NCBI GenBank assembly: GCA_049509475.1
Contig: JBEKZW010000005.1
Span: 1 to 64,000, forward strand
Source of the DNA: Sedimentisphaerales bacterium
GTDB taxonomy: Bacteria > Planctomycetota > Phycisphaerae > Sedimentisphaerales > Anaerobacaceae
DNA length: 64,000 nucleotides
Direction: 5' to 3'
The translations under genes and the position numbers were made by a program. Position 1 is the first letter of the stretch, and every line of letters starts with the position of its first letter. A model generated the notes under the pieces. It had not been told where the DNA came from. It ran no database searches and saw nothing but the letters and a program-made list of their open reading frames with translations. Below, piece by piece: positions 5,042 to 40,912 of the stretch.

Positions 5042-6343
5042 ATGAGAGTAACTATGAAATTAGTCGTGATGCTGGTTTTTGTATCGGCTGGATTGGTTTT
5101 TTGGGGTTGCCAGAAATCCAACGCACCGGCCACAGGCGTGAAGACTGAAGCCAAAGAAGCAAAGCCGGCGGCCAAAGCGGAGGTCAAGGAAGCCAAAGCG
5201 GAGGTCAAGGAAGCCAAAGCGGAGGTCAAGGAAGCCAAAGCAGAGGTCAAGGAAGCGAAAGCAGAGGTTAAGGAAACGAAGACAGAGACCAAGGCGGAGG
5301 TTCCGGAGACCAAGCCGGCAGCGCCGGAGGCGAAAGTTACGGTTGCGGAGCCGAACAAGGCTGCCGCGGAGGGTAACGACATAGCGGTGACAGTCAATGG
5401 AGTTGTTATTAAGGACGCCGATGTTGACGCGAAGGTAGATGCTTTTATGCAGAGAGCGGCGGCACAGATTCCGCCGAATATGGTTGAGCAGTATAAAACG
5501 CAAGTTCGGGGTCAGGCGCTCGAAAGTATGATTATGGAACAGCTTCTTGCTGAGGAGGTAAAGAAAAAGGGCATTGAGATAACGGATAAAGACGTCGACG
5601 ACAAGCTGAATGAAGTAGTAGCTGCCCAGCCGGGGATGACAATGGAGTCGTTCAAGGAGATGCTGGCCGCGCAGGGGCAGTCGTTCGACGTGGTAAGGGG
5701 ACAGATTAAAAAGACGCTTGGTTATGAGAAGCTTCTCGGCACAGTCGAAGTTAACGATGCCGAGGCAAAAGCATTTTATGATGAAAACAAAGACGATTTC
5801 AATATGCCCGAGCAGGTCAAGGCCAGTCATATACTGATAAAGGTTGCTCCGACAGCAACGCCCGAGGAGAAAACCGCGGCAAAGGCGAAGATAGACGGTT
5901 TGCTCAAACAGGCAAAGGCGGGCGGGGACTTCGCTGCGCTGGCGAAGGAAAATTCAGATGACCCGGGGTCTAAAATCAAAGGCGGCGACCTCGGATTTTT
6001 CGATAGAAGCACGATGGTCAAAGAGTTTGCTGATGCCGCGTTCGCAACGAAGGTCGGACAGTTAAGCAAGGTAGTCGAGACGCAATACGGCTACCACATA
6101 ATAAAGGTCACCGACCACAAAGATGGCGGCATGACGTCATTCGACAAGGCAAAGGCGGATATCGTCAAATCGCTTCAGGACAAAAAGAAAAACGAGGCGT
6201 TCAAGCAGCTAATCGAGAAGGTAAAGGCAGGGGCGAAGATTGAGTATCCGCCGGGCAAGGAGCCGAAGCCGCGGATGCCGAGGATGATGCCGAGACCGAA
6301 TACGCCGGCACCCCCGCCACAATCTGCACCAGCGACGAATTAA
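5042..6343 (+). CDS. PpiC-type peptidyl-prolyl cis-trans isomerase lipoprotein (PrsA/SurA-like) with N-terminal tandem repeats
   Basis: Signal peptide with lipobox (LVFWGC), an AKAEVKE tandem repeat block, and a C-terminal parvulin domain (ASHILIKV...GGDLGFFDRSTMVKEF...GYHIIKV). Confidence 0.8.
   Translation: MRVTMKLVVMLVFVSAGLVFWGCQKSNAPATGVKTEAKEAKPAAKAEVKEAKAEVKEAKAEVKEAKAEVKEAKAEVKETKTETKAEVPETKPAAPEAKVTVAEPNKAAAEGNDIAVTVNGVVIKDADVDAKVDAFMQRAAAQIPPNMVEQYKTQVRGQALESMIMEQLLAEEVKKKGIEITDKDVDDKLNEVVAAQPGMTMESFKEMLAAQGQSFDVVRGQIKKTLGYEKLLGTVEVNDAEAKAFYDENKDDFNMPEQVKASHILIKVAPTATPEEKTAAKAKIDGLLKQAKAGGDFAALAKENSDDPGSKIKGGDLGFFDRSTMVKEFADAAFATKVGQLSKVVETQYGYHIIKVTDHKDGGMTSFDKAKADIVKSLQDKKKNEAFKQLIEKVKAGAKIEYPPGKEPKPRMPRMMPRPNTPAPPPQSAPATN
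5171..5296 (+). repeat. Coding tandem repeat, 21 bp x about 6 (gccaaagcggaggtcaaggaa)
   Basis: Near-perfect 21-bp direct repeats encode (AKAEVKE)n inside the PPIase gene. Confidence 0.85.
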
Positions 6344-6367
6344 ACCGGCTGATGTAAACGTAAAACA

Positions 6368-6406
6368 AGCCGGGTTCCCGCAGTGAATGGGAACCCGGCT
6401 TTTTTA
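6368..6406. terminator. Bidirectional rho-independent terminator between the PPIase gene and nagB
   Basis: 12-bp stem AGCCGGGTTCCC / GGGAACCCGGCT followed by TTTTTTATT. Confidence 0.75.
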
Positions 6407-6420
6407 TTAGCATTTCATTT

Positions 6421-7233
6421 CTATTTCAGAAGTGAGGCGGGGTTAAGATTTTCGGATTCGATGTCCTTGAAGTATTTCACGGTGCCGTATTTCAATTCTA
6501 CGGCGGCATCTTCGTCGCAGACGATGATTGTTTTGGGATGCAACTGAAGGACGCTGACCGTCCACAAATGATTTACGCCCTGGTCGATTGCGTGATGCAG
6601 AGCGCGTGCCTTGCTGTGGCCTGAGGCGATAATCAGGACTTCTCTTGCATCCATCACGGTAGCGACGCCGACGGTAAGTGCGGTTTTGGGGACTTTGTTT
6701 GCGTCATCATCAAAGAAGCGTGAGTTGGCGATGATGGTGTCCTGGGTGAGGGTTTTAACTCGCGTTCTGCTTGCCAGCGACGAGCCGGGTTCGTTGAAGG
6801 CGATGTGTCCGTCGGGGCCTACGCCTCCGACGAAAAGCTCGATGCCGCCCAGTTGTTTCATTTTTTTCTCATAGCGTTCGCATTCGGCTTCGAGATTTTC
6901 GGCGTTGCCGTCGAGGATGTTGATGTTTTTGGCGGGGATGTCGATATGGCTGAAAAAATTGTTCTGCATATAGTAATGGTAGCTTGCGTGGTGGTCTTCG
7001 GGCAGGCCGACGTACTCATCCATATTAAAAGTGACAACGTTTTTGAACGTTACCTTCTTTGACGAGTTGAGCTTAATCAGGTCTTTATACATACCAAGCG
7101 GCGAAGAGCCGGTGGGCAGGCCGAGAAGGAAAGGTTTTGTTTTAGTCGGCCCAAAATCATTTATTTTTTTCGCGATGTAATGTGCCGCCCATTTTGAGGC
7201 GAGCTTGTAATCCGGTTGAATTATCACTCGCAT
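6421..7233 (-). CDS. nagB: Glucosamine-6-phosphate deaminase
   Basis: 270 aa that matches E. coli NagB along its whole length as recalled from memory ([33 protein letters not shown]). Confidence 0.9.
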
Positions 7234-23280: not shown

Positions 23281-23320
23281 CAAAAAAAACAGGCCCGGAG
23301 GTTATGCTCCAGGCCTGAAA
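23281..23320 (-). terminator. Rho-independent terminator of the repeat-protein gene
   Basis: Minus-strand hairpin CAGGCCTGGAG...CTCCGGGCCTG followed by an 8-T run. Confidence 0.6.
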
Positions 23321-23386
23321 ATTCATCAAAACTGCTGTTTTCACTAAGACCGTCTCATTACCTAATGATGGCAGGGTATCGCGTAA

Positions 23387-30575: not shown

Positions 30576-31000
30576 GGTGTTTCCGGCAATATCGGCGGTA
30601 CAGGACAGGGGTGTTTATCTTTATCAAGTGCGACAAAAGTCAGATGAGCGGTCGTAGCGATAACCTGTTTGGCATCGTAAGGGTCTTCGCGAATGACGCG
30701 AACGCCGACTTCCATTGAAGTATGGCCTACATAATTAACAGAGGCCTTCAGCACAACGTGGTCGCCGACGCGAACCGGCTCTCTGAACGATAGCGAATCG
30801 ATGCTTGCCGTTACGACCTCTTTGCCGCAATGCCTCTGGGCGGCCATTGAGGCGACCATGTCAATCCAGGCCACAATCGCCCCGCCCAAAGCGGTCCCGT
30901 AAGGGTTCGCCTGATTAGGCATCAGCAGATACCTGCTCTCAACGGCGCTGTCTGATGGTTTTTTGCCTGCCATATTTTCTGCCATTTCTAAAAACTGCAA
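30497..31000 (-). CDS. Acyl-CoA thioester hydrolase, YciA/BFIT-like hotdog family
   Basis: 167 aa. The hotdog core (YLLMPNQANPYGTALGGAIVAWIDMVA) and a basic EEKRRFEE-like C-terminal tail are typical of this family. Confidence 0.8.
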   Translation of the reverse strand: MQFLEMAENMAGKKPSDSAVESRYLLMPNQANPYGTALGGAIVAWIDMVASMAAQRHCGKEVVTASIDSLSFREPVRVGDHVVLKASVNYVGHTSMEVGVRVIREDPYDAKQVIATTAHLTFVALDKDKHPCPVPPILPETPDEKRRYENAKLRVQARKDLLSKISR

Positions 31001-31009
31001 AGTTTCTTA

Positions 31010-31290
31010 GCCATAGAGTATTTTAGCCACAGATTCCACGGATTGACACAGATTTATTTTAGACGCTGATTGCGCTGGTTACGCTGTTTTTTCAGACACG
31101 GATTAACACTGCATTTGCTCGGTTTGGCGTTCTGCGGCTAAGGGTATTCTCGATGCAAGCATCTGCGATACCCTTTCGCCTTGTCCGCGAAGGCCTTTGG
31201 CCTTCATTTTTGAGCCGAGCACACGGAAGCGAAGTGACGGGCCTGCTTCAGAAATAACACGGATTTAGACGGTTGAACAAGCCCTTCGAC
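31010..31290. repeat. Cluster of short degenerate dispersed repeats (TAGCCATAGAGTATTTTAGCCACAGA; CACGGATTAACACTG units; GTTGAACAAGC...GGGAACTGCTTA)
   Basis: Units recur at 31806-31880 and 32881-32927, flanking the small RF-1-domain gene. Confidence 0.6.
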
Positions 31291-31352
31291 GGTTCGACGA
31301 CGCTCACCGTAGACATGCTCAGGGTGGGTATTGAATACGCAGCGGGAACTGC

Positions 31353-31700
31353 TTACGAGGAGGTTCTGCGTCTATTCCTGTCTTTCTGCTTTCGAATCTT
31401 TTCTATCCTTTTTGCTTCCGGGCTTTCTTGCCCAAATAGTTTATTCTCAAGCAGCTCACACATCCTTTTTCTGGCATAATAACGATTAAGTCCCTGGCTG
31501 CGGCTCTTTTGAATTTTTACTGATAATCCGCTGGGGATATGTTTCAGATGAACACAGGAGGAGCTCTTATTGACCTTCTGGCCTCCTGAACCAGCACTTT
31601 TGACAAATTTTTCTTCTATATCTTTTTCGAACAAATTGCATTTTTGCATACGTTGTTCGAGTTCTTCTTTTTTTTGTTCTGTAATTCCAAAGTTAATCAT
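31353..31700 (-). CDS. Peptidyl-tRNA hydrolase / RF-1 domain protein with GGQ motif (ArfB-like)
   Basis: 115 aa. SGGQKVNKSSSCVHLKHIPSGL matches the class I release factor GGQ domain, and the basic C-terminal tail matches ArfB-type rescue factors. Confidence 0.7.
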   Translation of the reverse strand: MINFGITEQKKEELEQRMQKCNLFEKDIEEKFVKSAGSGGQKVNKSSSCVHLKHIPSGLSVKIQKSRSQGLNRYYARKRMCELLENKLFGQESPEAKRIEKIRKQKDRNRRRTSS

Positions 31701-31805
31701 AGGTTCTCAGCGTTTCCCATAGCCCCCGCGTCTCGTTTTGCGAGGCCCGGTTCGGACCGAGTGCAAAACGGCGGGGGTTCTAACCATCACCACGCCAAGG
31801 CCGAG

Positions 31806-31880
31806 CGAAAATATTCAGACACGGATTAATACTATTTTACACTGTTGAACAAGCAATGGGAACTGCTTATAATGGCAAAA
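31806..31880. repeat. Second copy of the CACGGATTAATACT...GTTGAACAAGC...GGGAACTGCTTATA repeat
   Basis: Direct repeat of 31256-31350 on the other side of the RF-1-domain gene. Confidence 0.55.
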
Positions 31881-31939
31881 CAGGCGGTGTTTGGCGGTTT
31901 ATGCAGACTGCGTAATCATTAATAGGGATTCAATAGAAC

Positions 31940-32401
31940 ATGATAATGGCGTCTAACCTACAAATTTATCTTTCAATAGCTAAAGACTCTTTGGCAAAGT
32001 CGGATAGAATAAGTGCAGCTCAGACGAGACCTAAACCTAACGGCGAGAAAGGTTCAATTATAACCTATGATTTTAAACACAAGTCCTTCAAGCACAGTCT
32101 TGTCGCCATTGTATTCGCTGGTATTTATCTCGAAGCCTTCCTATACATCAAAGGTGTCAAACTTCTGGGTAAAGCTGCCTACGATAAAATAGATTTTAAA
32201 ACCTATGAAGAGAAGCTTAAGGTGCTGAAGATAACCGACCCTCATCTACTTGACACATGTAAACGTTTCCGCATAGCTCGTAAAGAGCTAGTGCACGACA
32301 AGCCATTTCAGCAGAGTGAGGTAAGGTTTGCACAAATTGAAGCACGCAAGGCGATAGATTTGATTGATCGCATAACTCATCTTCTAACAGACAACCCCTA
32401 A
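31940..32401 (+). CDS. Hypothetical protein (low-GC island gene)
   Basis: 153 aa ORF in a markedly AT-rich segment. One hydrophobic segment. No known domain. Confidence 0.45.
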   Translation: MIMASNLQIYLSIAKDSLAKSDRISAAQTRPKPNGEKGSIITYDFKHKSFKHSLVAIVFAGIYLEAFLYIKGVKLLGKAAYDKIDFKTYEEKLKVLKITDPHLLDTCKRFRIARKELVHDKPFQQSEVRFAQIEARKAIDLIDRITHLLTDNP

Positions 32402-32834
32402 CCAAGCGGTGCGGGAATCGTGGACACCATACTTATTTCTTCTGATATCCTCAATTTAAACTACCTGCTCTACGCTGATCCTATATCTGCTGAATTTCGA
32501 GATGACATCGGGCGATTAAAGAATCCCTTCATATGTTCATTCTGAAAAATTCACAAGAAAATTAGCCGAAAGACAAAAAGTCACAAAATTTCCTTCTTGA
32601 AGCAAACTCCTGAAAATCCTCGTTATTGGGCTGAAAAGGGGGTTTTTAGCAGTCTGCTTGTTTTGTAAATAGTTAATAATAATATATTTTCGTTTATTTA
32701 CGAATAAACACTTGACATTAGTTAAGATGGATATAAAATACGACGCCGTTGTTTGGTTAATATATAACAACAAGCGAGCAGAAGGTGAAAGGCCCATTCG
32801 ACAAAGCTCAGGGCGGGCAGCCGAAGGGGACGGA

Positions 32835-32927
32835 GTGTAGACAGCGGACAGCGTGTAGCGGGTAGCGGACAGTTTTGAGTTTAGCCATAGAGATTTTTAG
32901 CTACAGAAGTCACAGAGGACGCAGAGA
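32835..32927. repeat. Dispersed repeat copy (GACAGCGGACAG...AGCGGGTAGCGGACAGTTTTGAGTTTAG + TAGCCATAGAGATTTTTAGCTACAGA)
   Basis: Matches 22615-22670 (inside tsaB) and 31015-31050. Confidence 0.6.
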
Positions 32928-32977
32928 AATAATAAGAAGGAAAAAGCAAAAAGTGGAAAATAAGGAAGGGGAATACT

Positions 32978-33412
32978 ATGGCGAGGAGCAGGACGTTTCA
33001 GAGGATTGATGGGGGCGGAAGAGTGGAAGCAGAAACTGCGGGGAGAATCGACCTTCTGCGGAGCAGGGCGGGGCTTTTGAGGGGCAAGGACAGCGCCCTG
33101 ATGCAGATGTACCTGAACGGCTCGGGGACATTGGGCCAGATGGCGCGGCTGGCGGGCGTAAATGAGGCGAATGTTGCCAGAAGGATTCACAAATTAGTTC
33201 GCCGGCTTCTGGACGGGCAATACATCACCTGCCTGCGCAGCCGCGACAAATTCAGCGATGAGCAAATCGAAATGGCGAGGGACTATTTTGTCGACGGGCT
33301 GCCTATGAAGGAAATAGCCGACAGGCACGAAACGACGTATTACGAGGTGCGAAAAACGATGCGGAAAATTCAGCGGCTGACAACTGTAACACGGACTCAC
33401 ACGGATCATTAA
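32978..33412 (+). CDS. Small DNA-binding protein with two sigma-70 region-4 / HTH-like segments (putative island regulator)
   Basis: 144 aa. HTH-like segments LGQMARLAGVNEANVARRIHKL and LPMKEIADRHETTYYEVRKTMRKI. Confidence 0.45.
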   Translation: MARSRTFQRIDGGGRVEAETAGRIDLLRSRAGLLRGKDSALMQMYLNGSGTLGQMARLAGVNEANVARRIHKLVRRLLDGQYITCLRSRDKFSDEQIEMARDYFVDGLPMKEIADRHETTYYEVRKTMRKIQRLTTVTRTHTDH

Positions 33413-33532
33413 AGATTGCCAATTTTTGATTGTCGATTGCCGATTTAATTTCGGATTTCGGATTGTAGATTGCAGATTTTAACCACAGGTTTTACAGATT
33501 GCGCGGATAGTTTTTGGTTTTGATGAGGAAAT

Positions 33533-33562
33533 GGATTCCCGCGTTCGCGGGAATGACAAATG
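33533..33562. repeat. Hairpin repeat GGATTCCCGCGTTCGCGGGAATGACAAATG (TTGTCATT family, reverse orientation)
   Basis: Near-perfect palindrome GATTCCCGCG / CGCGGGAATC, related to 638-666. Confidence 0.55.
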
Positions 33563-33599
33563 TTAAACTTTATTTTTAGAAACTATTTGGGATTAAGCG

Positions 33600-34271
33600 A
33601 TGCGTAAATTTTCAGTGGCGAAACAATTCGAGGTGAATCCGCAAAGAAGCGAGCGTGTTACGACGGTGATGCGGATGTTCGGCGTCGGTATCGACCGGCT
33701 CAAAGACCAGCAAACGACGCACAGTTGCGAAGTCGAGGTCAAGGATGGGGACATCGTTTACATAACCGGGCCTTCCGGCGCGGGTAAAAGCGTGCTGCTT
33801 CGTGAAATGCAGGCGGCGGTGGCCGACGACGAGAAAATTATTATCGAGCAGATAGCTTTGCCTTCGGACAAAGCGGCGATTGATTGTGTGGGTGGTTCGA
33901 CAGAGCTCACCACAGGCGGGACGGGGGTTATTGGCGCATTATCGCTGCTGAGCTACGCGGGATTGAGCGACGTGTTTTGTATGCTCAATGCGCCGACGAA
34001 TCTCAGCGAGGGACAGAAATATCGCTTTCGACTGGCTTGTGCGATGGCTTCGGGCAAAAAATTTATCTTCGCAGACGAGTTTTGCAGCAACCTGGACCGC
34101 ATCACCGCGGGCGTAATCGCATACAACGTCCGCAGGTTCGCGAAACACAACGGAGTTACGTTTTTCCTCGCGTCGGCCCACGAGGACATATTGGCGGATT
34201 TGCAGCCGGATGTGCTGGTCGTAAAAAACTTCACGGGAGAGGCGGAAGTCACATATAAAAGTAAAAAGTAA
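33600..34271 (+). CDS. Standalone ABC-type ATPase (nucleotide-binding domain only, no permease partner)
   Basis: Walker A GPSGAGKS, ABC signature-like LSEGQKYR, Walker B FIFADEF, H-loop ASAHED. 223 aa with no TM domain and no adjacent permease. Confidence 0.6.
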   Translation: MRKFSVAKQFEVNPQRSERVTTVMRMFGVGIDRLKDQQTTHSCEVEVKDGDIVYITGPSGAGKSVLLREMQAAVADDEKIIIEQIALPSDKAAIDCVGGSTELTTGGTGVIGALSLLSYAGLSDVFCMLNAPTNLSEGQKYRFRLACAMASGKKFIFADEFCSNLDRITAGVIAYNVRRFAKHNGVTFFLASAHEDILADLQPDVLVVKNFTGEAEVTYKSKK

Positions 34272-34308
34272 AAGGTAAAAAGTAAAAAGGGAAGAGCAAA
34301 AAGCAAAA

Positions 34309-35049
34309 ATGGAAACATGTACCGTAACTAAAAATCTGGGAATTGTCCCCGGTACGAGGGCGGATTATGAATCGCTTTCGCATTATCATTACCGCGAAGG
34401 CCATTCGGGGCCTTGTGTGGCGATTTTCGCACTGAAGGGCAAATTCAGAACAGCGACGAAGCTCGAAACCGTTGGCGTGATTGTTTATTCGATGCCGACA
34501 GCGGGGGCGCAGATGCGAAATGTCGCGACGGGCGGAGTTTTCGCGGGGCTGGAGAGGGGCACGCAGTTGAAACTCATCAACAGGAATATCCGCACAATCA
34601 GCAGGGTGATTATCGAGCCGAGGTTTCGCTCGCTGGGGCTTGCGGTTCGATTAGTCAGAGAAACGATGTTTTTGCTCAATGTCCCCTTCGTCGAGGCGCT
34701 GGCGGTGATGGGCAGGGCGAACCCGTTTTTTGAAAAGGCGGGTATGACCCGATACGATGCACCGATTTCGGCTTCGTGCGTTCGGCTGATTGAGGCGTTC
34801 AGTGCGGTCGGCGTTGATGAGCAGGATTTGATTGACCCGGTAGTTGTGCAGCAAAAGCTCGACAAAGTCTTGTCCGACAAATCAAGTTTTATCGAAAGCG
34901 AAATGACACGATTTCTTCAAAGTTATGGCCAAAGGCGGCTGATGCAGCCCGGCATCGTTCGCACAAGATTCGTCCTCAGCAAACTCACCGACAGGCCCGT
35001 GTATTATCTTTGGAAAAACCCAAACATAGAATTGATTATTGATGATTGA
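34309..35049 (+). CDS. Hypothetical protein, possible GNAT-like acyltransferase fold
   Basis: 246 aa. IIEPRFRSLGLAVRLV resembles GNAT motif A (R/QxxGxG/A). Assignment is weak. Confidence 0.35.
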   Translation: METCTVTKNLGIVPGTRADYESLSHYHYREGHSGPCVAIFALKGKFRTATKLETVGVIVYSMPTAGAQMRNVATGGVFAGLERGTQLKLINRNIRTISRVIIEPRFRSLGLAVRLVRETMFLLNVPFVEALAVMGRANPFFEKAGMTRYDAPISASCVRLIEAFSAVGVDEQDLIDPVVVQQKLDKVLSDKSSFIESEMTRFLQSYGQRRLMQPGIVRTRFVLSKLTDRPVYYLWKNPNIELIIDD

Positions 35050-35711
35050 TTATTGGAAATTTTATGAAGCACATAACACAATCAATCGAATTGAATAAAC
35101 TTGTGGCACATCCGGATAATCCCAACGTGATGAGCGAGGCGACGTTTCGCAAGCTGGTTCGCAATATCGAGCGGACGGGGCTTTATGAGCCGATTGTCGT
35201 CAGGCCGCACCCCCAAAAACAGGACTGCTTCGAGATTATTAATGGCCATCATCGGGTAAAGGCCCTCGAATGGCTGGGGCGTAACGAGGCGGATTGCGTT
35301 GTCTGGGACGTGGACGATGAGCAGACGGCGATTTTGCTGACGACGCTAAATCGTTTGGCGGGTTCGGATACGCTCGCGAAAAAGATTGAACTGCTGAAAA
35401 AACTTACGCAGCGGATGGGGACAGCCCAGCTTGCCAAATTACTGCCTCAGACGGCCAAGCAGATTGAGCGGCTTACTAACCTGAAACTGAATAGTGTCCC
35501 TGTAAAGTTAAACGCCGAGAGTTTCGCTGTTCCGCTTGTGTTTTTTGTGACAAAGCAGCAGCAGGGGGTTATCGAGAATGCAATTGAGGCAGCAGCGTTC
35601 AGCGAACAGCGTACAGCGGACAGGACACAAACGACAAAGGCACAGCGTCGCGCCAGGGCGATTGCGGAAATAGCAGGCCAGTTTATGGAGGGTGAAAGAT
35701 GCCGGATGTAA
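35046..35711 (+). CDS. ParB-like nuclease domain protein
   Basis: ParB/Srx N-terminal domain motifs (LVAHPDNPN...EPIVVRP...IINGHHRVKA). Its ATGA start overlaps the upstream stop. Confidence 0.75.
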   Translation: MIIGNFMKHITQSIELNKLVAHPDNPNVMSEATFRKLVRNIERTGLYEPIVVRPHPQKQDCFEIINGHHRVKALEWLGRNEADCVVWDVDDEQTAILLTTLNRLAGSDTLAKKIELLKKLTQRMGTAQLAKLLPQTAKQIERLTNLKLNSVPVKLNAESFAVPLVFFVTKQQQGVIENAIEAAAFSEQRTADRTQTTKAQRRARAIAEIAGQFMEGERCRM

Positions 35712-36112
35712 AACCACTTACAAAAAAACAACTCGCAGTAATTGAGGATTTGTTTGTGGGCGAGCTTGAGGAGCAGCAGATTTTAGAAAAGCACAAAATT
35801 GACAGGCGGACTTACGATAAATGGCTGGCGGAAGAGAATTTCGCGGGGGAGTTTGACCGGCGAATTAAATCCGCACATCGGCGAGGCGAGCTGATAATCG
35901 CGAGATTCGCTAATGTGGCTGCGGCCAAACTTGTCCAGTTGACTGAATCAGAAAACCAGGAAACCTCTCGCAAGGCCTGTTTGGACGTTATAAATTATCT
36001 CCGGCAAAAAGCCGAACCCGTGTCCGACGACCAGCCTGAAGCTGAGAAATTGCCGGATTTGTCGCCGGAACTCGCAAGTCGGTTATTAGCTGCTCTGGCT
36101 GCGAGCGAATAA
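35699..36112 (+). CDS. Putative phage terminase small subunit-like protein
   Basis: 137 aa. The N-terminus (LTKKQLAVIEDLFVG...) resembles the HTH of Terminase_2-type small subunits. It overlaps the ParB-like gene by 13 bp and lies upstream of the large subunit. Confidence 0.35.
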   Translation: MPDVKPLTKKQLAVIEDLFVGELEEQQILEKHKIDRRTYDKWLAEENFAGEFDRRIKSAHRRGELIIARFANVAAAKLVQLTESENQETSRKACLDVINYLRQKAEPVSDDQPEAEKLPDLSPELASRLLAALAASE

Positions 36113-36749
36113 AAACGAAGGGAGACACTCGCTCATTTAAGGTACGCATAATTTGCCGAGCGGTCTCCCTTGTATCATCATCGCCTTCTTATTATCGCTT
36201 CTTTGAGGCTTCGTGCCTCGCGGACCCGCGGGTCCCCATCACCATCCTCCATAGAAAGTATAAGTCATATTTTTAATAATGCAAAATGGCAGTTCGCAAG
36301 GATTGATAATTGTTTATTGATTATTGATTATTACAGACGACAGGAATGTGATTGATAAGTGTTAATCATCAATAATCACTCTGTGTTTTAATGTCTTAGT
36401 GGTTACGAGGATAGTCACATAATGACTATTTAAGGGGACATTTAAAAATAAAGAAAGAGAGACGCAGGCCCGAAATATCTCGCCCTCACTTTCTTCCAAG
36501 GGGCATCGTCTCTCTTTATGAAAAGCTTTTTGGCACTAACCCCGCACCTATTTTGGAATCACCACAGGTTTCCGCACCCATCGGCACGGCAAATCCGACA
36601 TCCCAAAACAGGTGCGAGGCATTCTTCCACTTAGAATATACGTTTGATTTTTAGGGGCCCAAAATTAATGCAGCGGAAATTTTTTGAGCCGGCGGGCGAT
36701 TGCCGTTATAATCAGACGCTCGGCGAAACAGCCGGAAAGGATACGATTG

Positions 36750-37181
36750 ATGAAAATAGCTATTGGCGCAGACCAGGCAGGGTTCAAATACAAGGAAATC
36801 ATAAAGAAGTTTCTTATCGAGAAGGGGCATACCGTTGACGATTTCGGCACGGATTCGGAAAAGCCGTGCGATTACCCCGATATTATGAGGCCTGTGGCAA
36901 AGGCCGTCGCCGCGGGCAAATACGACCGAGGTATCATACTTGGCGGCTCAGGCAACGGCGAGGCGATGGTCGCCAACAGGGTCAAGGGCGTGCGATGCGC
37001 CTTGTGCTGGGATTTGCGTTCCGCCCGGCTCAGCAGGGCGCACAACGACGCGAATATACTGGCGATGGGCCAGCGTATGATTGCGATTGAGGAAGCCCTC
37101 GAAATCGTTGAGCTTTGGCTCAATACCCCCTTCGATGGCGGCCGACACCTCACCCGCATCCAGAAAATCGACGCGGAATAA
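36750..37181 (+). CDS. rpiB: Ribose-5-phosphate isomerase B (RpiB/LacAB family)
   Basis: 143 aa that matches E. coli RpiB along its whole length as recalled from memory (MKIAIGADQAGF...GILLGGSGNGEAMVANR...NDANILAMGQR...GGRH). Confidence 0.85.
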   Translation: MKIAIGADQAGFKYKEIIKKFLIEKGHTVDDFGTDSEKPCDYPDIMRPVAKAVAAGKYDRGIILGGSGNGEAMVANRVKGVRCALCWDLRSARLSRAHNDANILAMGQRMIAIEEALEIVELWLNTPFDGGRHLTRIQKIDAE

Positions 37182-37248
37182 AGCCGGGTTTAGTTAAGAT
37201 TCAAATTATAAATTTTCAATTTCCACATCTGGAATTCGGAGGCATACT

Positions 37249-38733
37249 ATGACTAACGGTATCATTCTGCCGGCAAATGCGCAGGCCCAAAGTGTTTCCC
37301 ATTTGTATGAGTCGCTGCGGCGGGCAAGGCCGACGACAAAAGACGACATGAAAAACTATATCAAGGTCTTTTTGGGAATCGACGTGCCGGATAAGCGAAT
37401 CTGCCCTGAGCACAACAGTCCCCTCGATTATCTCTGGCACAGTTTTAATTGTGATTTTGCAAATCCGAAACTTGCCAATGCTGATTGCATTGTCTGGGCG
37501 AATCGGGGCGGGGGCAAAACCGACCTTGCGGCTGTGGCGACGCTACTGGACTGCGTCTTCAAGCCGAATTGCCAGGTTCGGATATTAGCCGGCTCAGAGG
37601 AACAGGCGGGCAGAATGTATCAATACCTCACCGCCTTTTTGCGTAAAGGTTACGAGCAGTTGCTTTCGGAGCCAATCAGGAAGACGGGGTGTCGATTTGC
37701 TAATGGTTCGGCTGTTGATGTTCTCACGCAGTCGCAGGCGAGCGTTCGAGGCCAGCACATTCAGAAACTCCGCTGCGATGAGGTTGAGCTTTTTGATAAC
37801 GATGTATTTAATGCCGCGAAATTCACCACTCAAAGTAGTGATGACATAATCGCCGGTATGGAGACAATCAGCACAATGCACAAACCCTACGGCCTTATGC
37901 AAAAGCTCGTTTCCTCAGCGGCCAAAACAAACACTCCCGTTTTCAAATGGTGCGTCTGGGAGACAATTGAGAAATGCACAGACCGGAATTGTTCACAGTG
38001 TTTGCTGTGGGGCGATTGCGCGGGCAGGGCGAAACAGGCAGCAGGGTATTTGAAAATTGACGATTGCATTACGCAGATGCGGCGCAGCAGCAGGGCGGGC
38101 TGGGAAGCCGAGATGCTGTGCCTGAAACCTAATCTCGAAAACGTTGTCTTTGACCAGTTCGACCCGGCTATTCACGTCAGGCCCGTCGAATATGACGCGA
38201 ATTTGCCTTTGTATCGTTCGCTGGATTTTGGGTTTGCCAATCCCTTTGTCTGCCTGTGGATTCAGATCGATAGCGAAGGCGTAGTGCGGGTGATTGATGA
38301 ATACGTACGCTCTCGCGCGACAATCGATGCTCACGCGGCTGAGTTGAAGAGCAGAATCTCTGGAGGTGAGTCGCGAGTCATAGCGACATTTTGCGACCCT
38401 GCCGGTGCGGGAGCAAATGATGTTACCGGCACAAGTGCGGTTCGTGAATTGCGTTCGCTGGGCATAAACGTACGGTATCGCAGAAGCGGCATCGCGGAAG
38501 GTATCGAGTCAATCCGCCGGGCGATACGTGATGGCGCAGGCAAAAGCCGATTTGTTGTCTCACCCAAATGCGCCCGCCTTATCGAGGCCCTGACCTGCTA
38601 TCACTATCCTGATACGCCAACAGGCGACGAATTACCTCTGAAAGACGGCGTTTACGACCACCCTATCGATGCCCTGCGTTATTTCTTCGTAAATTACGAA
38701 CACAATACGCAAACAAGGCATAGGATTTATTGA
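37249..38733 (+). CDS. Phage terminase large subunit-like protein
   Basis: Walker A-like ANRGGGKTD, ATPase coupling DEVELFD, and a C-terminal RNase-H-like nuclease domain (SLDFGFANPFVCLW, FCDPAGAG, DHPIDALRYF). Confidence 0.8.
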   Translation: MTNGIILPANAQAQSVSHLYESLRRARPTTKDDMKNYIKVFLGIDVPDKRICPEHNSPLDYLWHSFNCDFANPKLANADCIVWANRGGGKTDLAAVATLLDCVFKPNCQVRILAGSEEQAGRMYQYLTAFLRKGYEQLLSEPIRKTGCRFANGSAVDVLTQSQASVRGQHIQKLRCDEVELFDNDVFNAAKFTTQSSDDIIAGMETISTMHKPYGLMQKLVSSAAKTNTPVFKWCVWETIEKCTDRNCSQCLLWGDCAGRAKQAAGYLKIDDCITQMRRSSRAGWEAEMLCLKPNLENVVFDQFDPAIHVRPVEYDANLPLYRSLDFGFANPFVCLWIQIDSEGVVRVIDEYVRSRATIDAHAAELKSRISGGESRVIATFCDPAGAGANDVTGTSAVRELRSLGINVRYRRSGIAEGIESIRRAIRDGAGKSRFVVSPKCARLIEALTCYHYPDTPTGDELPLKDGVYDHPIDALRYFFVNYEHNTQTRHRIY

Positions 38734-38764
38734 AGAGGGTGGGCTTTCGGCGCAGAAAAAAACA

Positions 38765-38808
38765 GGACTGGGTCGGAGGGAGGGGAGAAAGCGAGATATC
38801 CCAGCCCT
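38765..38808. other. Stem-loop element with GGAGGGAGGGGAG loop, copy 1
   Basis: GGACTGGG...CCCAGCC stem. A paralogous hairpin lies at 39073-39116. Confidence 0.45.
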
Positions 38809-39072
38809 GTTGTTGGTACAAAAATCACGAAAGTTGGCGCATAAGTGCCTATTGGTGTGGGAACCTTTCGGCAAACTCTCGCCTTAATAATATAACGAAA
38901 TCATCCTACCATACTCAGCCGGGTTCGACAAGGAAAATTTTCGCGAAAAACACGTATTTTTTGCTTTTCTGGCGAAAAACGACCTCCCAAATCTGCCATT
39001 TCCAGATATCCCTGCATTCGCGTAAAACCCATCAGTTCTGCGTATAACAGCACTATTTGCGGGAAAAAGATT

Positions 39073-39116
39073 GGGCTGCGGTCAGGAGGGAGGAGAGGAG
39101 AGAATTACCGCAGCCC
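39073..39116. other. Stem-loop element with GGAGGGAGGAGAGGAG loop, copy 2
   Basis: GGGCTGCGG...CCGCAGCCC 9-bp stem. The purine-rich loop is related to copy 1. Confidence 0.45.
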
Positions 39117-39559
39117 GTGGTCATCGTTCACAGCATATACGCAGACAAGTCAAAGCAGGTTCGCATCTTTGAAGGCATATTGCTGAAAATCATCGGCTCG
39201 CTTAAAAATCGGATAATAAGGGAATTGTAATACGGGGGTTGCGCAAAGGCAAATTAAATTGTTAAAAGAACGGGTATCTGATATTCCCCTTAATCATCAT
39301 AGGCATTAAATTTCATCTCCGCCGGCACGAAATGGCCGCTTGGACTTGTTAATCGAACCCGGGCAATCCGTCTTTGTTCTGAAGACGTATAAATAAATGA
39401 AGAAGGTTAATACGAAAGTGAGGTTTTTATGAAGAATAATTGTGCTCAAAGGTTGCCGAATGTTACAATTGCCATCGAGATTAGCAAGACAAATCAAGAG
39501 CAGCAACGCGGACCGTGAGAACGGAGCGATGAAAATAAAAACCGTCAAAGAAAGGCGGT

Positions 39560-40912
39560 GTGACAATGTTTACCAAGTTTAAAAAAAGTTTGATTATGCT
39601 TTTAATGTTTTCGGGCTTAGTTTTGTACACTGAGCCGGCATATGCCAGAGGCGAAGGAGGCGGCAGTCGAGACGGTGAAATGGGAATGGGGCACTTCAAT
39701 GGTGATGGTGGCCATGGTGGTGGAATGAGCCACTTTAGCGGCGGCGCTATCTGGAACAACAACTTCAGAGGCGTTGGTGTTATTAGTGGGGGCAGCATTG
39801 GTGTCAGAAGCGGCGGTTTCGTAAGTAGTCCTTCCGGCATGAGAAGCGGCGGCTGGAGCAGCGGCAACGGCGGTTCTCAGAGAGATATGGATGTCCATGA
39901 ATCTCATAGCCAAGGTTTTCACAACGACGCCTTTAACAGAGATATGGGCGGCAGGGAATTTAACGGCGGGGAAGGACATGGGCATGTCGGGTTCAGAGAT
40001 TTTGACCATGGCCATGATTTTGACCATGACAGAGGTCACTTCTCCGACCAGGACCGTGATTTCCACCACAACCATTTTTTCTTTAACCCAGTTTTTGACA
40101 GTTTCTTCTTTAACCCATTCTTTGAGACGGGTGTGTTCTATAACCCCTGTTTCAATGGGTATTACTATGGTTCGCCCTGGTACGGCTACTATCCATACTA
40201 CGATTATTACCCTTATGGGTATAGCTATGGCACAGGCGGGAACAGTTATTACAACACGTATAATTACTACACCAACCCGATAGTCGGAACAGAGAATGGT
40301 GCCGGAGCAGCCGGTTCGACGACGTCTGCGGACAATTATTTCAATGAAGGTGTCAGGATGTTCGGGAACGGCAATTTCACCTTCGCAGCGGAGAAGTTCA
40401 AAGCGGCTATGTCGCTTGTACCGCAGGACAAGGTTTTACCTTTTGCTTATGCCCAGGCGGTTTTCGCCAGCGGTGATTACGTTACGGCCGCAACAGCAGT
40501 TCGCGATGCGGTTGCAAGAATCACGCCCGAGACCGAAGGGATTTTTTATCCTCGCAGAATGTATTCGAGCGATGTGGTTCTCCAGCATCAGATAAAAGCG
40601 CTTGCCGGAGCCGTGCAAATGAACGAGAACAATGCGAGCCTGCAGCTTCTGCTTGGATATAATGAGCTTGGGATAGGTGAGCTTGACAAGGCGGAGGCGG
40701 CTTTAAAGATTGCCAGCACTGACCAGGCAAACGGGCCGACAGCAACAGCGCTTCTGAAGCTGGTTGCTAAGCTTCGGACAGCAGGCGCTGAAACACCCAA
40801 GGCCGTAACACAAAAGACGGAGAATACGGCGCCGGGAATTCCAAAGACACAGAATCCGATGACGGAAACTGCGCCGCCGGCAGCACCGAAGGCGGAAACG
40901 CCTGTATACTAA
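39560..40912 (+). CDS. Secreted Gly/His/Asp/Tyr-rich low-complexity protein with C-terminal TPR-like helical domain
   Basis: Signal peptide, GG/HG/DHD/FN repeats (HGHDFDHDRGHFSDQDRDFHHNHF), a Tyr-rich block (YYPYYDYYPYGYSYG), and a C-terminal helical region. Confidence 0.6.
   Translation: MTMFTKFKKSLIMLLMFSGLVLYTEPAYARGEGGGSRDGEMGMGHFNGDGGHGGGMSHFSGGAIWNNNFRGVGVISGGSIGVRSGGFVSSPSGMRSGGWSSGNGGSQRDMDVHESHSQGFHNDAFNRDMGGREFNGGEGHGHVGFRDFDHGHDFDHDRGHFSDQDRDFHHNHFFFNPVFDSFFFNPFFETGVFYNPCFNGYYYGSPWYGYYPYYDYYPYGYSYGTGGNSYYNTYNYYTNPIVGTENGAGAAGSTTSADNYFNEGVRMFGNGNFTFAAEKFKAAMSLVPQDKVLPFAYAQAVFASGDYVTAATAVRDAVARITPETEGIFYPRRMYSSDVVLQHQIKALAGAVQMNENNASLQLLLGYNELGIGELDKAEAALKIASTDQANGPTATALLKLVAKLRTAGAETPKAVTQKTENTAPGIPKTQNPMTETAPPAAPKAETPVY

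Follow-up and report, generated by a model that had tools for sequence, protein, structure and literature searches.

What is a gene for a terminase large subunit (TerL) with intact catalytic motifs doing among the housekeeping genes of a planctomycete, with no capsid gene in the surrounding sequence? The question is raised by a stretch of 64,000 nucleotides from a Sedimentisphaerales bacterium (GenBank assembly GCA_049509475.1, contig JBEKZW010000005.1, positions 1 to 64,000 of the forward strand), hereafter called the window. A first-pass annotation, made from the letters alone, described a repeat-flanked island with a phage packaging module and proposed that it might be a satellite-like element, a decayed prophage or a domesticated packaging or nuclease module. 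Only the last of these three proposals withstood our analysis. The block at 32978-38733 is probably the packaging module of a split, domesticated, phage-derived head-tail element resembling a gene transfer agent (GTA), that is, a "viriform". This reading is based on homology, gene order, order-wide conservation, purifying selection, co-divergence with the flanking genes and linkage to head and tail genes in related genomes.

The seven genes previously named in the block are all present on the plus strand and are supported by domain or PHROG matches. The first encodes a 144-aa protein (32978-33412) with two helix-turn-helix (HTH) units resembling sigma-70 region 4 and YlxM, which matches Sigma70_r4 and UPF0122 weakly and is a candidate transcription activator of the cluster. 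It is the first cluster gene in 23 related loci and directly adjoins the TerL gene in the distant locus L174. About 240 nt upstream of it lies the strongest promoter-like site of the region (32712-32739, plus strand), a sigma-70-like TTGACA-16-TAAAAT that agrees with the consensus at 11/12 positions and is, by this match, a candidate promoter of the packaging operon. The next gene encodes a stand-alone ATP-binding cassette (ABC) ATPase (33600-34271; PF00005, 4e-11; phrog_293, 1e-29) with Walker A GPSGAGKS, signature LSEGQ and Walker B FIFADE and without a membrane partner. It is followed by a 246-aa protein (34309-35049) that the Pfam GNAT profile barely detects (0.07) and phrog_886 matches at 1e-11; an N-terminal GNAT fold with the acyl-CoA-binding motif (R/Q-x-x-G-x-G/A), which places it in the GNAT superfamily, precedes a helical C-terminus of about 100 aa. 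A protein with a ParB N-terminal domain and a GHHR motif variant comes next (35046-35711; PF02195, 1.4e-8; many ParB-like PHROGs), and its gene is kept in 39 loci. The overlap noticed earlier is real for the ParB and TerS-like genes and measures 13 bp, while the "ATGA" reported between the GNAT-like and ParB genes is TTGA if ParB starts at TTG 35046, or else a 14-nt gap if it starts at ATG 35064.

The small terminase subunit is represented by a candidate, a 137-aa all-helical protein with an N-terminal HTH (TerS-like, 35699-36112; phrog_2538, 3.5e-9; PF13022, 9e-4), assigned from one PHROG match and its location before TerL; in the related loci its gene always lies between those of ParB and TerL. 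It had no PDB profile match, an AF2 model made without an alignment (pLDDT 47) was left unused, and hhalign detected no similarity to the DNA-binding protein of Pseudomonas phage nickie. Likewise, PDB profile searches gave nothing usable for the GNAT-like and HTH proteins, and NCBIfam has no named family for any cluster protein. The TerS-like gene is separated by 637 bp from rpiB (ribose-5-phosphate isomerase B, 36750-37181; PF02502, 4.5e-57), which has its own promoter-like site (TTGAGC-N17-TATAAT, 36684-36712). TerL itself (494 aa, 37249-38733) matches Terminase_6C (PF17289, 2e-9) and phrog_2 (5e-22), and more weakly the profile of the TerL in PDB 5oe8. The terminase homology of this open reading frame (ORF), on which the first-pass annotation depended, was thus confirmed, as were its motifs: in 15 homologues no variation was seen at Walker A G88-T91, Walker B D177/E178 or the nuclease residues D326, D383 and D470/D474. 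TerL is therefore predicted to be an ATPase plus RNase-H-like nuclease of the Terminase_6 type, with all catalytic motifs intact.

Does the module come from a phage? In tblastn searches the GNAT-like protein and TerL were matched in the same cultured-phage genomes, namely nickie (Nickievirus), the SSU5-like phage-plasmids (SSU5, PhiR41_1, Cyrano) and Rhizobium phages (RHph_X66, B1VFA). There the homologous packaging-proximal genes stand in the same order, ParB-like, (methyltransferase), ABC ATPase, phrog_886 protein, small DNA-binding protein and TerL, followed by portal and capsid. Identities to the window are 37-40% for the ABC ATPase encoded upstream of the terminase in nickie and PhiR41_1, 22-30% for the phrog_886 GNAT-like protein and about 30% over the nuclease half of TerL. 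Unlike the planctomycete locus, these phages are complete viruses: TerL is immediately followed by portal and capsid genes, and the genomes also encode a ParB-methyltransferase and replication functions. At BLAST level their portal and capsid proteins are unrelated to the planctomycete ones, and no homology was detected between their DNA-binding protein and the TerS-like protein. From ParB to TerL, the gene run is an old phage module, as judged from its gene content and order.

The same comparison changes the view of the ABC and GNAT-like proteins, which had been described as a cargo pair. The pair occurs upstream of TerS/TerL in nickie and the SSU5-like phages, one phage record labels the homologue "ABC-type ATPase fused to a predicted acetyltransferase", and in a distant planctomycete relative (L173) the two are fused in one polypeptide of 495 aa (hhalign probability 99.8%). 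The fusion, together with the co-occurrence in phages, implies that the two proteins act together, and the pair is a conserved component of the machine and not cargo. TmcA/NAT10 are ATP-dependent GNAT enzymes that acetylate nucleic acids, and Mom is a DNA modifier with a GNAT fold. By analogy with these enzymes, the most attractive guess is that the pair modifies the DNA under packaging. The ABC-ATPase/GNAT/ParB module, which stands in front of the terminase in several unrelated phages, gains here a setting in which its function can be tested, and its survival under selection in a domesticated system suggests that it matters for packaging rather than for a viral life style.

How widely is the cluster distributed? 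A search for TerL homologues returned more than 2326, the best 120 of which are 66-91% identical and lie on contigs of up to 686 kb. A scan of GTDB with one genome per species recovered 469 stretches encoding a TerL relative (67-91% identity among the best 80), with record titles naming only Sedimentisphaerales, Phycisphaerae/Phycisphaerales, Planctomycetota or "uncultured Pirellulales" metagenome-assembled genomes (MAGs). The GNAT-like protein has a 100% identical counterpart in a Sedimentisphaerales MAG. TerL is apparently mostly single-copy; one MAG has two copies, one of them on a 1.7-kb contig. In about 40 related planctomycete loci HTH, ABC, GNAT, ParB and TerS follow one another in this order and orientation, with a TerL gene oriented likewise farther downstream, and the flanks vary by lineage (for instance PfkB and MlaE, or TsaD and AI-2E). 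As to whether the block moves or is kept as a unit, a point raised earlier, these differing flanks surround a conserved unit, and no sign of mobility was seen. The interval between TerS and TerL ranges from almost nothing to about 6 kb and holds different host genes per lineage: rpiB in the window and some other lineages, elsewhere a sulfatase-like, an 800-aa or a Fic-like protein, the last three read from the sequence with no domain scan. We thus regard rpiB as a host gene lodged in this variable gap and do not count it among the working parts of the system. Insertions between ABC and GNAT, or between ParB and TerS, occur in a few genomes as well.

Signs of selection were sought by comparing the window with 12 relatives. 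The ratio of nonsynonymous to synonymous substitution rates (dN/dS) was 0.05-0.13 for TerL, 0.09-0.22 for the ABC ATPase, 0.07-0.23 for the TerS-like protein, 0.07-0.26 for the HTH protein, 0.15-0.32 for ParB and 0.07-0.33 for the GNAT-like protein. The six cluster genes share this range with the neighbours ArgF (0.06-0.08), Ham1 (0.07-0.14), AI-2E (0.10-0.20) and HAD (0.11-0.22), with even smaller values for argB and argD (0.02-0.04). At synonymous sites the cluster genes have diverged from the nearest relatives (dS 0.4-1.0) as much as the flanking arg genes have, and the cluster and its surroundings have therefore diverged together. These values indicate that the cluster is inherited vertically and is under purifying selection. 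The 2.9 million viral contigs of IMG/VR hold no TerL relative closer than 42% identity, a match that covers part of the protein, and the capsid gene described below was found in two contigs only. The viral contig L171 (IMGVR_UViG_3300027852_000006) carries a lone capsid homologue (5970-7124, 69% identical) with no portal or scaffold nearby, and its neighbours (DnaB-like helicase, SEC-C-motif protein, C5-methylase, SocA/Panacea) form a context unlike that of all other copies. Overall, the signature is that of a domesticated, vertically inherited gene set, unlike a prophage, a satellite or a defence island.

These results also bear on the view of the block as a mobile island, either a decaying prophage remnant or a phage satellite that uses a helper phage, similar to the phage-inducible chromosomal islands (PICIs) or their capsid-forming variants (cf-PICIs). 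Such an origin would agree with a small block holding TerS and TerL without structural genes in the window, and with an AT-rich variable segment and a 36-nt repeat pair upstream. However, no integrase, replication or primase gene or att-like repeat was found in or beside the block, and host genes lie inside the cluster. The cluster is also present order-wide and missing from the viral contigs, its dN/dS values are far under 1, and its dS is the same as in the flanking genes. The GC content (0.505 for the block, 0.507 for the window) is that of the host, so that neither it nor the order-wide conservation agrees with the term "island". "Repeat-flanked" did not hold either, as the 36-nt repeats at 31007, 32881 and 33463 are all upstream and surround only a segment with an ArfB-like gene and an orphan ORF. 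An att-like pair between 31000-33000 and 38734-39560, suggested as a check, was not found by a direct and inverted repeat search of 30900-39700 or by a pattern search. An ordinary or decaying prophage was rejected, there being no contiguous block with integrase and att, no patchy distribution and no relaxed selection. Satellites (PICI, cf-PICI, P4-like elements and PLE) were rejected as well: cf-PICIs and their kin are likewise small chromosomal blocks with packaging genes and an incomplete virion set, but their integrase, replication genes, att sites and patchy distribution have no counterpart in the planctomycete cluster. We consider a mobile island very improbable.

Where, then, is the rest of the particle? 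As stated in the first-pass annotation, no portal, capsid or integrase gene occurs in the 64 kb, and tblastn with the related portal, scaffold and major capsid proteins gave no match in the window. In distant planctomycete MAGs (TerL 41-46% identical) the same cluster lies in housekeeping surroundings (EF-Tu, SecE, NusG, ArgRS), and in L086 genes for an SPP1-type portal, a scaffold and an SU10/DUF5309-type major capsid protein are located 6 kb past TerL, beyond several host-type genes. The trio is found at most 10 kb from the packaging genes in this locus and in the Sedimentisphaerales-type loci L048, L064 and L069. The capsid protein of Sedimentisphaerales-type loci is 65% identical even to the distant one of L086, while the nearest cultured-phage capsids are at most 32% identical. 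More than 4595 hits were obtained in the capsid search, and the best 120 are all 384 aa long and 85-100% identical. The metagenome scan yielded 24 long capsid loci with housekeeping flanks, and all 24 keep the order portal, scaffold, capsid, 218, 123, 258 and 262 aa, a variable segment of 1-4 kb, then 166, 229, 612, 111 and 93 aa. In 9 of these 24 the packaging genes (HTH gene) lie divergently, 2-3 kb from the portal gene, a layout shared by L064, L069 and L255; elsewhere the two halves are apart. Portal, capsid and tail genes just outside the block had been named as the mark of an ordinary prophage. Genes of this kind are present, next to the cluster in some relatives and far from it in others, but they are chromosomal, conserved order-wide and interrupted by host genes, which argues against an ordinary prophage. 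No integrase or replication gene was found within 10 kb of the packaging or structural module in the loci inspected, and host genes sit between the members.

The approximately 11 genes after the capsid gene are probably tail-like, judging from their position and a few domain hits. The segment between the 262-aa and the 166/229-aa genes is hypervariable, with unrelated genes in each genome, some of which encode Laminin_G_3 or polysaccharide-deacetylase domains (L089 13941-15017, L090 14523-15269, L255 14011-15285 and 16988-18565). Such a pattern would be expected of receptor-binding tail proteins. In the distant relatives a divergent LexA/CI-like repressor with HTH_3 and Peptidase_S24 domains is encoded beside the packaging cluster on the minus strand (L086 5648-6424, L088 5115-6140, L173 6090-6956, L174 7277-8074), which suggests SOS-type control in these lineages; the window and its Sedimentisphaerales relatives have no repressor of this kind beside the cluster.

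The structural genes also have to be considered when asking whether a particle is involved at all. The packaging genes may have been co-opted for a capsid-free cellular task, such as an anti-phage or anti-plasmid nuclease, or DNA processing and modification by TerL, ParB and the ABC/GNAT pair. TerL at times lies well away from both the other cluster genes and the capsid genes, the ABC protein has a weak PADLOC match to mad3, and an ATPase combined with ParB-like and TerL nucleases is reminiscent of what defence systems are made of. Yet no defence model fits the gene set: the PADLOC models, a check proposed earlier, identified no system, and PADLOC-DB 2.0 gave only isolated weak matches (ABC to mad3 and mad8, ParB to the N-terminus of MTase_II). 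In addition, the order-wide presence, apparently mostly single-copy state and housekeeping-like dN/dS of the cluster are unlike those of defence islands, and capsid, portal and scaffold are even better conserved and repeatedly linked to it. A capsid-free role seems improbable to us, less so than mobility.

Among known systems, the GTA-like reading finds its closest parallel in the RcGTA-type GTAs of Rhodobacter capsulatus and other Alphaproteobacteria. In both cases phage-derived head-tail and terminase genes are fixed in the chromosome of a clade, occupy more than one locus and are inherited vertically under purifying selection. RcGTA lacks integrase and replication genes, and none was found within 10 kb of either planctomycete module in the loci inspected. 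RcGTA has the activator GafA, and we take a sigma-like or HTH activator beside structural or packaging genes to be common to RcGTA and the present system. In contrast, no sequence relationship between the two was found, the capsid here is of the SU10/DUF5309 type, RcGTA is without the ParB-like and ABC-GNAT genes of the planctomycete packaging module, and the planctomycete terminase and head genes are split or divergent. PBSX of Bacillus subtilis, a domesticated defective prophage, and BaGTA of Bartonella, a split-locus GTA, are further cases of phage-like particle genes kept by a host lineage. The LexA-type repressor of the distant relatives recalls the SOS-induced PBSX, but the depth of conservation, at the level of the order or wider, and the housekeeping interruptions bring the planctomycete system closer to GTAs than to PBSX.

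On this basis the following scenario may be proposed for the GTA-like element. A phage would have been captured by an ancestor of the Sedimentisphaerales (Phycisphaerae, Planctomycetota) before the radiation of the group, and its head-tail and packaging genes would since have been retained by the host even as they became separated and host genes came to lie among them. The sigma-4-like HTH protein would turn on the operon, and the TerS-like protein would bind DNA and bring in TerL, which would cleave the DNA and pump it into procapsids made of the portal, scaffold and SU10-type capsid proteins encoded elsewhere in the genome of the lineage. The ParB-like protein may help in DNA recognition or cleavage, by analogy with the HNH or ParB-type terminase partners of some phages. 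The ABC-ATPase/GNAT pair could constitute one ATP-dependent and probably acyl-CoA-dependent enzyme acting on DNA or on a packaging protein. That particles containing DNA are made appears somewhat probable to us; that they actually transfer genes is held with less confidence.

Two features by which GTAs are recognized were found: phage-derived head(-tail) and terminase genes on the chromosome, the terminase in the window and the head and tail genes in related genomes, and clade-wide vertical inheritance with purifying selection (469 stretches, dN/dS 0.05-0.33, dS). Several points nevertheless weigh against a GTA-like element. Neither particles nor packaged DNA nor a lysis gene have been observed. 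Portal and capsid genes are absent from the window, and the structural half was located in related genomes only. The post-capsid genes gave no informative PHROG match even at E up to 5, and the assignment of TerS depends on a single PHROG match. TerL lies more than 10 kb from the other packaging genes in some loci (e.g. L033, L039 and L050), and some of the genes may for this reason have a capsid-independent role. The LexA-like repressor beside the cluster of distant lineages is also a trait of prophages. Finally, no literature in the library searched supports phage-like gene transfer in this group; a search for terminases or GTAs in Planctomycetes, Phycisphaerae and Sedimentisphaerales, and for DUF5309 and COG2401, returned nothing relevant.

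A further element of the locus is non-coding. The stretch with two hairpins downstream of TerL, noted in the first-pass annotation, was confirmed and extends over 826 bp (38734-39559). Hairpin e1 (38755-38815) begins 22 nt past the TerL stop codon and has a stem of 10-11 bp (CAGGACTGGG / CCCAGCCCTG) enclosing a 27-nt loop that contains the invariant GGAGGGAG; when the minus strand is read, the hairpin has a U7 tail. Its paralogue e2 (39063-39123; 63.6 bits with covariance model R1) has the stem GGGCTGCGGT / ACCGCAGCCC and a loop with GGAGGGAGGAGAGG. An A-run, a 10-11-bp stem (GGGCTG... / ...CAGCCC) and a loop of 24-30 nt containing the invariant GGAGGGAG make up the shared motif. Hairpin e1 is 98.7-100% identical over 65-77 nt where TerL is 75-91% identical and synonymous sites are near saturation, and a recognizable core is still present in the most distant Sedimentisphaerales loci. 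The inner stem covaries G-C/A-T/C-G (three pairs, nine double-change cells), which 0/500 shuffles reached. In about 14 genomes a two-gene cassette lies between TerL and e1 (L030 11634-13236; also L043, L046, L047, L056, L062, L066, L084 and others), encoding proteins of about 369 aa (XRE-type HTH-like start, HExxH motif) and about 177 aa, as read from the sequence.

In TerL loci totalling 1.05 Mb the covariance model found approximately 70 strong copies, almost all of them on the TerL strand and downstream of TerL, with one to four copies per locus and at times a gene inserted between them. It found no copy in distant relatives or phages and no further strong copy in the window, where a weak partial match at 23282-23323 (25 bits, E ~8e-4 by a rough calibration) is probably due to chance. 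The 460 kb of capsid loci hold two strong copies and a weak hit. The two strong copies (L219 6345-6400 and 6741-6802) lie on the portal strand, 600-1000 nt upstream of the portal gene, and would fit an ancestral order TerL-hairpins-portal. A genome-wide repeat resembling repetitive extragenic palindromes was rejected, given only two strong copies in 64 kb and two (plus one weak) in 460 kb of capsid loci, as against about 70 beside TerL. RNase P, SRP and 6S RNA were rejected for want of an Rfam match; Rfam at relaxed thresholds gave only chance-level eukaryotic families in both non-coding gaps.

Which strand is read? All five internal stem mismatches (5/5) are A·C on the TerL strand, i.e. G·U on the opposite strand, where a U-run follows each hairpin and the folding is better than that of shuffled sequences (z -2.8 and -3.1). 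These three observations hint at an RNA read towards TerL that would end in a terminator-like hairpin with a CU-rich loop. The hairpins may serve as the 3' end of a small RNA (sRNA), as an insulator against convergent transcription, as a control element or as a DNA site for a packaging protein.

The last option leads to another explanation, in which a real phage-derived particle serves a different purpose, as a killer particle, an adhesion or biofilm tool, or a vehicle for specific DNA with the hairpin array possibly marking the start of packaging. The variable segment of the structural cluster with its lectin-like and polysaccharide-deacetylase domains speaks for such a particle, as do the fixed position and orientation of the conserved hairpins beside TerL and the conserved TerS-like protein, which suggests sequence-specific recognition. 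However, the intact ATPase and nuclease of TerL, the portal and the scaffold argue for DNA-filled heads, nothing separates specific from random packaging, and the stem mismatches fit an opposite-strand RNA better than a DNA packaging site. We regard such a purpose as unlikely, albeit a more serious contender than a capsid-free role.

If the GTA-like reading is correct, it would provide the first GTA-like system of the PVC (Planctomycetes, Verrucomicrobia, Chlamydiae) group; few independent gene transfer agents are known to us, and none from Planctomycetes. Genetic manipulation of Planctomycetes is hard, and how they exchange genes is obscure. A vertically inherited set of capsid, tail and terminase genes, conserved in hundreds of uncultured species from sediment and peat, would rank as a major candidate for the way genes flow in the group, and the system could become a genetic tool for these bacteria. 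In a wider and more tentative form, the Sedimentisphaerales, and probably further Phycisphaerae or other Planctomycetota, would possess an independently domesticated GTA-like particle, with the ABC/GNAT and ParB-like proteins marking or modifying the packaged DNA and the hairpin array acting as a cis-acting control or recognition element; we consider this possible, though it is not what we would expect. The invariant hairpins beside TerL are in any case a previously unreported conserved nucleic-acid motif.

Regarding the surroundings, the ORFs scanned between 16.9 and 52.6 kb outside the cluster are of housekeeping type (pectinesterase, thioesterase, RF-1-domain protein, AI-2E transporter, argB/D/F, Ham1, M16 peptidases), and no tRNA, tmRNA or Rfam family was found in the window. 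Two of the 36-nt direct repeats, at 31007 and 32881, are 81% identical and bracket an AT-rich segment of 1.9 kb (31007-32916, GC ~0.41-0.45) with an ArfB-like RF-1-domain gene (31353-31700, minus strand) and an orphan 153-aa ORF (31940-32401) that has no homologue in any related locus. The content of the interval between the thioesterase and HTH genes varies among close relatives. On the other side, between hairpin e2 and the AI-2E transporter gene, a 450-aa protein is encoded (39560-40912) with a low-complexity N-terminal half rich in Gly, His, Asp and Tyr and with C-terminal TPR repeats. Its gene looks like a lineage-specific insertion, since tblastn gave no match in any related locus and e2 there directly precedes the transporter gene.

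Finally, about 200 nt of non-coding DNA upstream of rpiB (36454-36650) are conserved far above synonymous sites among relatives with 82-91% TerL identity. They hold a long hairpin (AAAGAGAGACG...CGTCTCTCTTT), with a variable inserted stem in some genomes, show three compensatory pairs only and have no Rfam match, and the conserved sequence is absent from distant relatives. The region precedes the rpiB promoter-like site and travels with rpiB, not with the packaging genes, when insertions occur between TerS and rpiB; it may be a leader or an sRNA.

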